A DNA stretch of 29,283 nt from Candidatus Pacearchaeota archaeon (GTDB lineage Archaea; Nanobdellota; Nanobdellia; Pacearchaeales; GW2011-AR1): assembly GCA_017608985.1 (NCBI GenBank), contig JAFCEV010000001.1:1-29283 (forward strand), in the 5' to 3' direction. A model generated the notes under the pieces. It was not told the origin of the DNA, ran no database searches, and worked only from the letters and a program-made list of their open reading frames with translations. This document shows, piece by piece, positions 2,792 to 26,738 of the stretch (positions within the stretch are counted from its first letter, which is position 1; each line of letters opens with the position of its first letter). The position numbers and the translations under genes are program-made.

Positions 2792-2962
2792 ATGGAAGAA
2801 GAAAAAAAGTACAATGAAATATCTGCTAAGGATTATGAAGAAAAATCTTTATATGATTCTGACACTATTAAGATGATGGTGGATAATGCAAATAATGGTG
2901 TGATGGATGTTAAAAAGAGTTTGGAAAATATACAGAAGATTAAACAAAAGGCACAAAAATAA
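2792..2962 (+). CDS. Small hypothetical protein, 56 aa (MEEEKKYNEISAKDYEEKSLYDSDTIKMMVDNANNGVMDVKKSLENIQKIKQKAQK); not in the ORF track
   Basis: Translated by hand; GGAG RBS at 2783-2786, ATG 2792, TAA 2960-2962; overlaps the convergent pcm end by 23 nt. Confidence 0.6.
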   Translation: MEEEKKYNEISAKDYEEKSLYDSDTIKMMVDNANNGVMDVKKSLENIQKIKQKAQK

Positions 2963-3549
2963 ATCCATGCAATTCTTTTTTAATCTTAAAATTATCTTTT
3001 TGCCTTTGAATTGCTACTAAAGATTGGCTAAATCTTGAGCCAACAGGAGCTACAATCAAACCTTTATCTTTTAATTGATTTAAAATTTGTTTAGGAATCT
3101 TCTCACATGCTGCACTTATTAATATCCTGTCAAATGGTGCTGCTTCTTTTAACCCCCAATTTTCCATCCCTATTATAAACTTTAATATTTTTATAATCCT
3201 TGATATTATTTTTTGATTTATTTGCTAATTCTTTTACAATTTCAACACCATAAACTTTTCCTTTATTTCCAACTATCCCAGATATTAAAGCCAAAACATA
3301 ACCGCATCCAGAACCAAGTTCAAGAACTTTTTGTCCTGATTTTAAATTCAACAGTTTTAACATTGTTGCAATTGTATATGGTTGGGAAATTGTCTGTCCT
3401 CCTCCAATAGGTAGAGGTCTGTCTTCATATGCTCTTTCTTCCAAATCTTTAGGAACAAAATTCTCCCTTTTAACTTTTGCAAAAGCATTTAATATCTTTT
3501 TTGAAAAGCCTTGATTTTTTAGATGCCCTAATAATTGTGTTTTGTTCAT
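2940..3549 (-). pseudogene. pcm: Protein-L-isoaspartate O-methyltransferase split by a single-base frameshift
   Basis: ORF 3130..3558 carries the PIMT N-half (AYEDRPLPIGGGQTISQP, VLELGSGCGY) and ORF 2940..3167 the C-half (EAAPFDRILISAA, LIVAPVG). Removing one G from the G5 run (plus-strand C5 at 3153-3157) gives one ~202-aa frame from ATG 3549. Confidence 0.85.
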
Positions 3550-3616
3550 TTTAAACAATTTTCACCATCCTTATTAAAATAAAGAAGCGTAATTAAATCT
3601 TTTGTAAAAATAGGAA

Positions 3617-3795: not shown

Positions 3796-3911
3796 TTAAA
3801 TCCTCAGACTAATTATCTTTGATATTCCGTCATGCATACAACAAACGTATCTTCGTTTGGAGTCATGCTATATTTTTAAGCTTATAATTTTACTGATTCC
3901 GTCATGCATAC
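3796..3911 (-). repeat. Duplicated smc 3' end: 16-bp identical core ATTCCGTCATGCATAC at 3824-3839 and 3896-3911, followed by synonymously diverged tails
   Basis: 3909-3868 encodes MHDGISKIISLKI*; 3837-3796 encodes MHDGISKIISLRI*. Confidence 0.9.
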
Positions 3912-6750
3912 TTACTCCATAAAGATTTGTTGCATTTGAAATTACTTCATCATTGTGGGTTATTATTATATATTGTCCTTTTTTCATGTATTTATTCAAA
4001 AGAGTTGCAAGTCTTTCTGAATTCCTCTTGTCAAGTGCTGCATCAATTTCATCAAGGATATAAAAGCAATAAGGATTTAACTCTTGTATTGCAAAAATCA
4101 ATGAAAGAGCTACTAAAACCTGCTCTCCTCCTGAGAGGGATTTCACATCAAAATATTTACCGTGTCCTGTCTTGACTGTGATGCTTACTCCTCCTTCAAA
4201 AGGCTCTTTTCTGTTTTCTGGTTCAAGATAAACCTGTCCTTTAGTGCTCAATTGTGAGAAATTCCTTGAGAAAATTTCGTTCAGTTCATCCAGAGTTTTC
4301 AAAAAGGCTTTTCTCTTCTTTATATCAATTTCATGAATAATTTTTAAAATTCCTTGTTTTTCTTTTGTAATAATTTCTGCTTTTTCCCTTACTGAATCAT
4401 ATTCTTTTTTTACAGAATCATAAACCTCTAAACTTCGAAGATTTATTGTTCCTATTCTTGAAAGCAAATCCTGTGTTCTGGATAATCTTTCCACAAGATT
4501 TTCTCTTTTAGTCTTGATTATTTTAATATTATTAAATTCTAACAACTCTGTTTGTAAATTTTCAATGATTGCGTCAAAACGTGCTTTTTCTATTTTCAGC
4601 TCATTTATATCCTGCTCTATATTATGAATTATGTTCTGCTTATTTAAAAGTTCAGATTCTTTATTTCTAATATCTTTTTGAAATTTGTCTTTTTTAAAAA
4701 TCAATTGCTGGAATTCCCTATTTAATTCTTCTTCTTGTTTCTTTTTATTTTTAAGAATCTTTTCTTTATCTCTTATATTTTCTGTAATTTCACTTATCTC
4801 TGTCTCTAAATCTTCTTCCTCTCTAACAACTTGCTTTAAAGAAACTTTTAAACGTTCAAATTCTCTTTGTTTAAATGCAATTTCAGAATCAGTATCTTCT
4901 TCATTTCTAAAAGAAAGTTCCTGAACTTCTATTCTTGCTGTTTCATACTTCTTTTCAATATTTGAATTTTCTTCAAAAGAATCTTCAAGCTTTTTTTTAA
5001 TCTTTTCAAATTCTTTAAATTCCTGCCTTGCTTTCTGAATTTTTTCCTGAATTTCTTTAATCTTTTCTTTTTTCTCCTTTATATTTGAAAGTTTAATTAA
5101 GTCAGATTCTCTTTTTGAAATCTCCTCCTGTAACTGGTTTATATCCTGTTTTAGTAAATCTCTTTTTTTATAAATCTCTCCCAATTCTTCATCTGATTTT
5201 CTTACCTCTTCTTTTAATTTATTTAATCTTGGAAGAGTTTTATCTTTAATTTCACGAATATGTTTTTCTGTTATCTTACTCTTACATATGGGGCAAACAT
5301 CCATTTTGGATATGTTTTCTATTAATTTATTCTCTTTGTCTATCTCATTTTCATTTGCAGAAGCAAGTTTCTCTAATTCTATTTCCTTTTTATTAATGCT
5401 CTCTAAAAGTTCTTTTTTTTCAGATAATGAGATATTTAATGATTTTACGTTTTCTTTATTCGTATTTCTGTCAAATAGTTCTGCATGCAAGGACTTTATC
5501 TGTCTTAACAAAAATTCGGATTCATTTTCATAATTACTGATAAGGCTATTTTTATCTTGAATTCTTTCTTTAATTGATTTTAATTCAGATTTAAGCATAT
5601 AAAATTTCTTTCTCTGTTCTTCTAATTTTTCCAATTCCTGTTTTTTTAATTCAATTTCTTTGTCTCTTATTTCTTTTTTAGAATCCGCTTTTTTAGGTCT
5701 CTTTAAATTTTTAATGTAATTTTTTGCTTCTTCAATATTTTCTTCAAGTTCTTGCTTTTGTTTTAATAAACTGGAATTCTTACTCTCATAATTTTCCAAT
5801 CTTACATTTAATCCTGCTAATTCTGCCCTTAGATCTGCAATTTCTCTGTTTAATTTTTCCTGCTCTAATCCTGTTGATTCCTGAATAGTCTTATTTATAG
5901 AGATTATTTTTGTTTCAAAATTTGAAATAAATGCTTTTATATTTATTATCTCTTTTCTTATTTTATCAATCTCTTTGTTTTTTTTGAATATATTTTCCTC
6001 TATCTTTTCTCTTTCTTTCTCATTCTTTTCCTTGTCATGATTTATAATGCTTGCTTTAAGGATTTGGACATCCTTTTCCAGTTTCTTAAATCTAAGAGCC
6101 TGCTGTCTTTCTTTTTCCAGATTATTGAGATAAATAGTCCTCTCCCTTAAAATTGCTGAAACTTCTTTTAATTTATCCTCTGTTTTTTCAAGTTCTCTCA
6201 GAGATTTTTCTTTTCTTGATTCATAAATTGAAATTCCTGAAACCTCTTCAATTATTTTTCTTCTGTCATCAGGATACATTCTCACAAAATTCTGTATTTC
6301 TCCCTGAAGTATTATATTGAATCCATTAGGGTCAATTCCTGCCTGAGCAAGTAAACTCAAAATCTGCTGCCGTGTTTTTGTTTCATTTTCAATTTTATAA
6401 ATGCTCTGCCCGTTTTTTCTTACAATTCTTTTTATTGAAATCTCATTTTTGTCTATTGAAAAAGTTCTGTCAGAATTATCAAATATTATCTCAACACTCG
6501 CTTCTTTTGCAGGTGCAACTGCCTTTGTTCCCAAGAATATTAAATTTCCTGCTTTTGCTGCTCTCATTGACTTAATGCTCAATCTTCCTAAGACAAAACA
6601 CAGAGCATCTGAAATATTACTTTTTCCAGAGCCATTTGGACCTAAAATTACATTTATCCCCTCTGTAAAAGGGATTTCTGTTTTTCTCGGAAAACTCTTG
6701 AATCCATGCATCACCAGTTTTTTTATATGCAACATGAGGAAGAGAAACAA
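3868..6750 (-). CDS. smc: SMC-family ATPase with condensin-type heads and a central CxxC; likely start ATG 6735
   Basis: GFKSF, Walker A GPNGSGKSN, IILQGEI, signature LSGGE, Walker B/D-loop YILDEIDAALD, long coiled coils, CPIC at aa 486-489. Confidence 0.9.
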   Translation of the reverse strand: MFLFLMLHIKKLVMHGFKSFPRKTEIPFTEGINVILGPNGSGKSNISDALCFVLGRLSIKSMRAAKAGNLIFLGTKAVAPAKEASVEIIFDNSDRTFSIDKNEISIKRIVRKNGQSIYKIENETKTRQQILSLLAQAGIDPNGFNIILQGEIQNFVRMYPDDRRKIIEEVSGISIYESRKEKSLRELEKTEDKLKEVSAILRERTIYLNNLEKERQQALRFKKLEKDVQILKASIINHDKEKNEKEREKIEENIFKKNKEIDKIRKEIINIKAFISNFETKIISINKTIQESTGLEQEKLNREIADLRAELAGLNVRLENYESKNSSLLKQKQELEENIEEAKNYIKNLKRPKKADSKKEIRDKEIELKKQELEKLEEQRKKFYMLKSELKSIKERIQDKNSLISNYENESEFLLRQIKSLHAELFDRNTNKENVKSLNISLSEKKELLESINKKEIELEKLASANENEIDKENKLIENISKMDVCPICKSKITEKHIREIKDKTLPRLNKLKEEVRKSDEELGEIYKKRDLLKQDINQLQEEISKRESDLIKLSNIKEKKEKIKEIQEKIQKARQEFKEFEKIKKKLEDSFEENSNIEKKYETARIEVQELSFRNEEDTDSEIAFKQREFERLKVSLKQVVREEEDLETEISEITENIRDKEKILKNKKKQEEELNREFQQLIFKKDKFQKDIRNKESELLNKQNIIHNIEQDINELKIEKARFDAIIENLQTELLEFNNIKIIKTKRENLVERLSRTQDLLSRIGTINLRSLEVYDSVKKEYDSVREKAEIITKEKQGILKIIHEIDIKKRKAFLKTLDELNEIFSRNFSQLSTKGQVYLEPENRKEPFEGGVSITVKTGHGKYFDVKSLSGGEQVLVALSLIFAIQELNPYCFYILDEIDAALDKRNSERLATLLNKYMKKGQYIIITHNDEVISNATNLYGVSMHDGISKIISLKI

Positions 6751-25928: not shown

Positions 25929-26738
25929 TTGGTAATAAACATCCTTTTTAAAATGGATAAAAAGAAAAAGATTATATTAATAATTATCCTCCTGATTCTC
26001 GCCCTTCTATTAAAATTTTATCCTTCTCTAGATACCAAACTTCAGGGATTTTTAATTGAATCTGAAACTGCATATATTGACAGGATAATAGACGGAGATA
26101 CTGTAAAAAGCAATGAAATTTCAATAAGACTGCTTGGAATTAATTCTCCTGAAAAAGGGGAAAAATATTATTCAGAGGCAAAAGAATTCTTAGAAGAACT
26201 AATTTTAAATGAGACAGTAAGACTGGAATTTAGAAAAGATAGGGAAGACAAATATGGAAGAACACTGGCTTATTTATATTTTAAAGAGGATAATATAAAT
26301 AAAAAAATTGTGGAGGAAGGATATGCAAATTTTTATTTTCCTTCTGGAAGAGATATATATTATAAAGATTTTGAGAAAGCATGGGAAAAATGCATTGAAC
26401 AGAACAAAAATTTATGCGAAGTTTCACAAGATAAGTGTGCAACCTGTATTGAACTCAGAGAATTTGATTATAAAGATGAAATTATAACTCTTTACAATAA
26501 ATGCGGTTTTGACTGCGAACTGACTAAATGGAAAATTAAAGATGAAGGAAGGAAAAAATTCATCTTCCCTGAATTTGTTTTGAAAGATTATGAAGAGGTT
26601 ACTATATTAATAGGAGAAGAAGAAAATACAGAAAATATATTATACTGGAAAGGTGAGGATTATGTCTGGACAGAATCAGGAGATACTTTGTTTTTAAGGG
26701 ATGAAAATGGAAAGTTGGTTTTGTGGAGAGGATATTGA
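25929..26738 (+). CDS. Membrane-anchored thermonuclease (SNase) with C-terminal lamin-tail-like domain; likely start ATG 25953
   Basis: RIIDGDTV, IRLLGINSPE, DKYGRTLAY, then Cys-rich linker and W.IKDEG....F, YVWT.SGDTLFLRD. Confidence 0.85.
   Translation: MVINILFKMDKKKKIILIIILLILALLLKFYPSLDTKLQGFLIESETAYIDRIIDGDTVKSNEISIRLLGINSPEKGEKYYSEAKEFLEELILNETVRLEFRKDREDKYGRTLAYLYFKEDNINKKIVEEGYANFYFPSGRDIYYKDFEKAWEKCIEQNKNLCEVSQDKCATCIELREFDYKDEIITLYNKCGFDCELTKWKIKDEGRKKFIFPEFVLKDYEEVTILIGEEENTENILYWKGEDYVWTESGDTLFLRDENGKLVLWRGY

Follow-up and report, generated by a model that had tools for sequence, protein, structure and literature searches.

Canonical Smc proteins dimerise through a hinge domain, and the hooks of Rad50 dimerise through a Zn(Cys)4 site. 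What the SMC hinge does beyond dimerisation, in DNA binding, as an entry gate or in loop extrusion, is a long-standing question that has so far been approached with laboratory chimeras. In the Bacillus subtilis Smc(Zh) chimeras, the hinge and adjacent coiled coil were exchanged for the hook of Pyrococcus furiosus Rad50, and such a chimera works in the laboratory when its arm length is right (Burmann et al. 2017, PMC5344682). Reciprocal Rad50-hinge chimeras have also been built, and these engineered swaps work (Tatebe et al. 2020, PMC6969161). A 'hinge-less' SMC cluster of marine Actinobacteria lacks CXXC (Sussfeld et al. 2025, PMC12153180). Literature searches returned no description of a natural hook-bearing Smc, and the hook-for-hinge swap was previously known only from engineered proteins. 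Here we describe an smc gene (3868..6735, minus strand) in a 29,283-nucleotide (nt) stretch of DNA from a Candidatus Pacearchaeota archaeon (GenBank assembly GCA_017608985.1, contig JAFCEV010000001.1, positions 1 to 29,283), hereafter the window. Its product is probably the organism's only Smc, the ATPase of a Smc–ScpA–ScpB condensin in which a Rad50-type tip, ending in an invariant Cys-Pro-x-Cys, stands in for the hinge and the distal arm.

The protein resembles the Smc of Smc–ScpA–ScpB (TIGR02169; Pyrococcus Smc structures 5XEI, 5XNS and 4I99) in its ABC-type heads with all motifs, in its proximal arms, in the presence of ScpA and ScpB in the genome and in being a single-copy, housekeeping gene. 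Unlike that Smc, it has no hinge, is about 185–210 amino acids (aa) shorter than hinge-bearing Smc and has a Rad50-like distal arm and apex with a CPxC. Its antiparallel coiled coil is tipped by a CPxC within the extended motif C-P-x-C-x3-[IL]-T-x-E-H, both as in Rad50 (PF04423; P. furiosus hook structures 1L8D and 6ZFF), but its heads are not those of Rad50, no Mre11 gene adjoins it and the genome's Rad50 is a separate protein. Like engineered Smc(Zh), it joins SMC heads and proximal arms to a hook-bearing Rad50 coiled-coil tip; here, however, the architecture is natural, fixed across the sampled order, seemingly donated by the lineage's own Rad50 and known from sequence alone. The actinobacterial hinge-less SMC is likewise a member of the SMC family with normal heads and no hinge, but it is bacterial, of unrelated origin and nearer to the hook-less mini-SMCs described below than to the window's protein.

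The open frame on the minus strand comprises 963 codons and is listed as an open reading frame (ORF) at 3868..6750, starting with a TTG at 6750. Five codons further on lies the methionine that is the first residue of all homologues; the corresponding ATG at 6735 stands 39 nt past the stop codon of the RNase HII gene lying upstream. Because homologue starts and the upstream sequence both point to this ATG, it is the likely true start, giving a gene of 955 aa plus a TAG stop. The initial annotation had described a protein of about 955 aa with a CPIC at nt 5284–5295 (aa 486–489 counted from the TTG), and both statements hold; counted from the ATG, as we do from here on, the CPIC occupies aa 481–484. 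Alignments used a database cluster representative (P0002) that differs from the window's protein at 2 residues, and database homologues carry the annotation Pacearchaeota or Nanoarchaeota SMC. Past the smc TAG, the frame runs on in phase through 3796–3867 (minus strand) and closes by repeating the final 13 residues of Smc, here as MHDGISKIISL-R-I where smc has -K-I. The DNA of the duplicate has a short identical core, after which codons mostly differ; it could be the footprint of an element once integrated at the 3' end of smc.

Family models, matches to solved heads and motifs delimit the two halves of the ATPase head, both on the minus strand. The N-terminal half (aa 1–167; 6235..6735) carries the Walker A motif GPNGSGKS (6619–6642), the arginine-finger region KSMRAAK (6553–6573) and the Q-loop (6295–6309); the C-terminal half (~aa 801–955 and the stop codon; 3868..4335) carries the signature motif LSGGE (4123–4137), the Walker B motif FYILDE (4048–4065) and the H-loop ITHND (3949–3963). 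The canonical Smc motifs noted at the outset were thus all located, and none of the five (Walker A, Q-loop, signature motif, Walker B, H-loop) varies among 38 homologues. Pfam SMC_N covers residues 8–953 of the 960-aa ORF translation (E 1.3e-50). The NCBIfam models for archaeal Smc (TIGR02169, 522.4 bits) and bacterial Smc (TIGR02168, 511 bits) each matched in two stretches that omit the hinge part of the model, whereas Rad50 models gave 108 bits at most. Neither Smc score reached its equivalog cut-off (729.4 bits for TIGR02169), a further difference from the Smc of Smc–ScpAB. Among solved structures, the protein matched Pyrococcus Smc (5xei, E 1.6e-101; 4i99, E 2.7e-84) and B. subtilis Smc (E 1.9e-69), against a best E of 1.7e-15 for Rad50 heads, and head trees placed it with Smc, apart from Rad50. 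All three lines of evidence therefore favour Smc over a grouping with Rad50/SbcC. Other families were tried and rejected: ASRP (NF045487) scored 117.7 bits against a cut-off of 300, arcadin-4 (NF053563) 25.1 bits against 860, and RecN scores lay under the cut-off or far under those of Smc. The defence SMC-like ATPases LmuB (92.7 bits) and JetC (43 bits) in PADLOC likewise fell far under the Smc models, and the neighbours of the gene are housekeeping genes.

No hinge separates these halves, as the initial annotation had proposed. SMC_hinge (PF06470) had no Pfam match in the protein at E ≤ 1, a hinge hidden Markov model built for the analysis did not match it either, and a six-frame search of the whole genome found no SMC hinge. 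A full-length AlphaFold2 model (mean predicted local distance difference test (pLDDT) 79) was helical from residue 168 to 829 with short breaks and had no globular middle; the arm turned back at 478–489, and low-confidence breaks at 345–355 and 609–614 fell at the inferred module junctions. The strands nearest the heads are SMC-like. The proximal N-terminal strand (aa 168–354; 5674..6234, minus strand), modelled as helices by AlphaFold2, matched hinge SMCs with an hhalign E of 2e-13, against 2e-5 for Rad50, and the proximal C-terminal strand (~aa 611–800; 4336..4905, minus strand) matched hinge SMCs with an E of 4e-14.

At the apex of the helical hairpin lies the CPIC (5284..5295, minus strand), whose cysteines conservation, profile matches and structure matches mark as putative zinc-hook residues. 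Of 121 close homologues, 120 have C-P-x-C midway along the protein; in the exception, the 1,484-aa P0024, a CPVC stands at residue 1010, displaced by an intein. Between positions 290 and 675 of the 38-sequence alignment, no residue other than C481, P482 and C484 is invariant. Across 171 sequences, the extended motif reads [IV]-S-K-x-D-x-C-P-x-C-K-x-K-I-T-x-E-H, and its part from the cysteines onwards (C-P-x-C-K-x-K-I-T-x-E-H) is as in Pyrococcus Rad50 (CPVCGRELTDEH). Judged by its conservation, the CxxC of the window's protein is a non-chance motif. Only the two cysteines of each chain are strictly conserved metal ligands (the histidine at +11 is variable), so that a four-ligand, tetrahedral metal site needs two chains. 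A UBZ-like CCHC finger was considered and rejected, as its would-be third and fourth ligands are not conserved.

Comparisons of the hook region point to Rad50. A profile of the 94-aa region had 1l8d (E 3.2e-7), 6zff (E 1.4e-6) and human 5gox (E 0.009) as its top matches, ahead of all others, and Pfam Rad50_zn_hook (PF04423) matched 37 of 38 family members (best E 1.3e-7). Aligned with hhalign to the hook of the genome's own Rad50, the region gave an E of 6e-8; in most genomes of the order, the profile picked up both SMC and Rad50, the latter with E values from 1e-13 to 1e-19. A model of the hook fragment formed a helix-turn-helix (pLDDT 92) for which Foldseek ranked 1l8d first and second (template modelling score 0.76). 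Complex prediction with two copies of aa 426–540 and Zn scored 0.15, where the mark is 0.42; this score weighs neither way on binding.

The resemblance to Rad50 does not stop at the hook. We compared segments of the hook-bearing SMCs, profile against profile, with two alignments, one of Rad50 from the same order and one of hinge SMCs of the class. Proximal-arm segments 230–340 and 620–730 were best matched by hinge SMCs, collinearly (E 2.3e-13 and 3.8e-14, against 2.4e-5 and 2.5e-3 for Rad50). The hook (450–515) was best matched by Rad50 (E 8.9e-16) and had no match in hinge SMCs. Distal-arm segments 355–465 and 501–605 were also best matched by Rad50 (E 1.6e-8 and 3.9e-9), in exact register with the hook; their matches to hinge SMCs had E values of 1.1e-5, out of register, and 3e-5, respectively. 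In sliding 60-aa windows, seven overlapping windows from 350 to 619 aligned to Rad50 at a constant offset of ~125–130, and collinearity with SMC returned only at or below 349 and from ~590–620 upward. The two distal segments scored 60 and 63 against Rad50, compared with 25–46 for the controls, which were reversed segments and the distal arms of hinge SMCs set against Rad50. What is new here is that the whole distal arm, beyond the hook alone, is collinear with the lineage's Rad50; this Rad50-like module with its hook spans ~aa 355–610 (4906..5673, minus strand). Global alignment showed ~185 hinge-SMC residues to be lost between the two junctions, and the length therefore falls from 1,140 to 955 aa. 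In a tree of the hook-centred segment, all SMC segments share one side of a supported split (97/92) with the Rad50s of the order and its nearest relatives.

On these comparisons, there is a strong case that the hook and the 30 aa on either side derive from Rad50, and a moderate one that the whole distal arm (~aa 355–610) does. The 'hybrid' of the initial annotation, with Smc heads, no hinge and a Rad50-like hook, thus seems to hold in a literal sense, since Rad50 looks to be the source of the hook and probably of the whole distal arm. The best-surviving alternative, which we consider unlikely, keeps the same function for the protein and lets the hook arise de novo, by convergence, on the tip of a hinge-deleted arm. 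Coiled-coil profile scores that are moderate beyond the hook, a poorly resolved segment tree and the S, N or T that follows CPxC-K/R in SMC hooks, versus a conserved Q in Rad50 hooks, would all fit such an origin. It accounts poorly, however, for a common extended motif that stretches well past CPxC, for the match of 450–515 to the order's Rad50 with nothing comparable in hinge SMCs, and for seven overlapping windows at one offset, with both the reversed-sequence and the hinge-SMC controls scoring lower. As a separate observation on Rad50 itself, several Rad50 genes of related genomes in the class (L053, L056, L067, L072 and others) contain one or two in-frame TAG or TGA codons, which could reflect pseudogenes, sequencing errors or recoding.

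The replacement characterizes the order. We found no SMC hinge in any of the 151 genomes, 68 of them of high quality, that were sampled from this order; nearly all genomes elsewhere in the class have one. Across a sample of the phylum, a hinge was found in 278 of 301 genomes; the window genome and every one of the 14 others of its order are among the 23 that lack it. Four further hinge-less genomes of the same class (G225, G350, G408 and G411) were rejected as additional hook lineages, as they gave no SMC match at all. The head-domain phylogeny suggested in the initial annotation placed the window's protein among Smc: the order's proteins form one clade (support 100/99) nested among the hinge SMCs of sister orders (99/93), and the ancestor therefore had a hinge.

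Two kinds of unusual SMC emerged alongside this survey. The 1,000-aa L033 (G039:C20) is a second hook-bearing SMC-like protein, with CPVC at 502 and 31% identity; its heads pair with the hinge SMC P0262 outside the order's clade (99/96), and it reflects either a hinge-to-hook replacement that happened independently or a contig of foreign origin. In some orthologues (P0024, P0124, P0131 and frames of ~1,490–1,516 aa), an insert of ~530 aa sits right at the Walker A region; that of P0024 matches intein and homing-endonuclease Pfam families, and an insert of this kind seems to be present in many hinge SMCs of the class (~1,700 aa).

Several families of the same order have SMCs of 779–887 aa with neither hinge nor CxxC (L028–L032 from G028, G029, G030, G035 and G040; also P0143, P0145, P0146 and P0148). 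In alignment, these proteins are without roughly aa 420–590 of the hook form, which is most of the Rad50-like module, and one hook-less family retains a single Cys near the tip. In genomes with a hook-less SMC, the hook profile finds Rad50 only. The tree puts one hook-less group as sister to all hook forms and nests the others within the hook clade, a pattern by which several families appear to have deleted the module secondarily, with at least one loss nested inside that clade. The module itself was probably gained when smc recombined once, near the base of the order, with the rad50 of its own lineage, an exchange that would have swapped in ~255 aa (aa 355–610). We tentatively put forward a fuller history, as possible rather than probable: a single intragenomic exchange at the base of the whole order (Pacearchaeota by the names of homologues) replaced the hinge and entire distal arm of the sole condensin, and several families later deleted the module to leave a mini-SMC without hinge or hook. 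Were this history true, neither the DNA-binding and gate functions of the hinge nor a dedicated apical dimerisation domain would be essential for SMC in small genomes.

For the hook form, we infer zinc binding and hook-mediated dimerisation from the motif and its matches. Two protomers would be joined at their arm tips by one Zn2+ held by four cysteines, two per chain, as in Rad50, so that the role of constitutive dimer interface would pass from the hinge to a Zn hook. The heads would still bind ATP and the kleisin ScpA, and the complex would load onto the chromosome and organise it. By analogy, a Zn(Cys)4 hook dimer is plausible given the functional B. subtilis Smc-hook and reciprocal Rad50-hinge chimeras.

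The hook might instead tether or cluster separate Smc complexes rather than join the two arms of one dimer. Rad50 hooks have been suggested to bridge complexes in this manner (discussed in PMC6969161), yet we consider such bridging improbable here: the protein is without any other constitutive dimerisation domain, high-speed atomic force microscopy of Rad50 complexes shows that the arms of a given complex stay joined by their hooks (PMC6969161), and engineered B. subtilis Smc with a hook acts as a normal dimer (PMC5344682). Slightly less probable again is that the hairpin is simply capped by the CPxC turn, in a purely structural, intramolecular or metal-free manner, with dimers formed through arm–arm and head contacts only. 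Related families that deleted the hook and kept the rest of SMC intact speak for a cap. Against it, each chain has two invariant cysteines and no conserved third or fourth ligand; genuine Rad50 hooks, whose dimers form through Zn(Cys)4, are matched by the motif as well as by its flanking sequence; and the absolute conservation of C, P and C in an otherwise fast-evolving coiled coil suggests a specific chemical role. Zinc-mediated joining of the two arms of one dimer thus remains our preferred account of the hook.

The partners expected of a condensin are encoded in the genome. As the initial annotation had observed, neither ScpA, ScpB nor Mre11 lies beside the gene, and a scan of 25 window ORFs matched none of them. 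Their genes lie in other parts of the assembly, a metagenome-assembled genome of 476 kb in 50 contigs that is ~86% complete. The kleisin ScpA (39.6 bits, above the Pfam cut-off) and ScpB (E 4e-35) were both found outside the window. In a separate Mre11–Rad50 operon on another contig, the gene after Mre11 encodes a 692-aa Rad50 whose own hook is a CPTC; the cell therefore has a Rad50 distinct from the window's protein, and the latter is the sole candidate in the genome to partner ScpA. Among high-quality genomes of the order, 57 of 60 encode ScpB and 29 of 30 encode ScpA, and the hook-bearing SMC is single-copy and was found in 40 of 41 relatives searched. That the protein is a Rad50-like or defence-type SMC ATPase (a Rad50 paralogue or a LmuB/JetC-like protein) rather than the chromosomal condensin, as its CxxC hook, weak PADLOC matches (mad3, 166 bits; LmuB, 93 bits) and sub-cut-off TIGR02169 score might suggest, is highly improbable given heads far nearer to Smc than to Rad50 or defence families, a single-copy occurrence together with ScpA and ScpB, a true Mre11–Rad50 operon elsewhere with no other SMC seen, and housekeeping neighbours.

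The same bin holds a second, truncated hook-SMC fragment of 637 aa with a CPLC (L001, G000:C15:1-2195, minus strand). It shares 45% identity with the window's protein and 56% with an orthologue from a different genus. Because relatives are mostly single-copy, its contig is probably foreign to the bin; a role as paralogue or heterodimer partner is unlikely given that 56% identity, the mostly single copies of relatives and the short contig.

Several observations weigh against the assignment of the window's protein as the sole, hook-dimerised condensin ATPase. Of the Pfam comparison proposed in the initial annotation, the hinge side came out as expected, whereas Rad50_zn_hook scored 18.8 bits in the window's own protein, under its gathering cut-off of 24.3, despite matching nearly all other family members. 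Foldseek on the hook model gave no match at E ≤ 0.001, with 1l8d at E 0.018 because helical hairpins are generic, and a single-sequence PDB search with the hook region returned nothing significant, its top match being the RAD18 UBZ finger (E 0.066). The tree of the 254-aa hook-centred segment is saturated, so the donor cannot be named precisely, and a Rad50 origin for the arm more than ~30 aa from the hook draws on moderate coiled-coil profile scores. The ScpA gene is interrupted by a contig end. Genome searches found no other full SMC, and at ~86% completeness a second SMC could have been missed. The existence of related SMCs with neither hook nor hinge means that an apical link may matter less in this lineage than the proposed model supposes.

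If the protein is what it probably is, hinge-specific functions would be shown to be dispensable for a working Smc–ScpAB, and an archaeal order in which a Rad50-type hook replaces the hinge would amount to a long-running natural experiment. Structural and genetic work could then draw on numerous chimeras shaped by evolution, whose junctions are placed near aa 355 and 610. Whether any apical link is needed is a question that the derivatives lacking both hook and hinge raise in turn.

In public sequencing runs, the DNA occurs in one sample and as a small share of a sediment metagenome, and the gene is not listed in any RNA dataset among them. Elsewhere in the window, a gene for protein-L-isoaspartate O-methyltransferase at 2940–3558 (minus strand) is split into two overlapping frames, 3130–3558 corresponding to Pfam model positions 2–140 and 2940–3167 to positions 135–206, which is a frameshift or an assembly error. 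At 25929–26738 (plus strand), the window encodes a protein that pairs a staphylococcal-nuclease domain with a lamin-tail domain.

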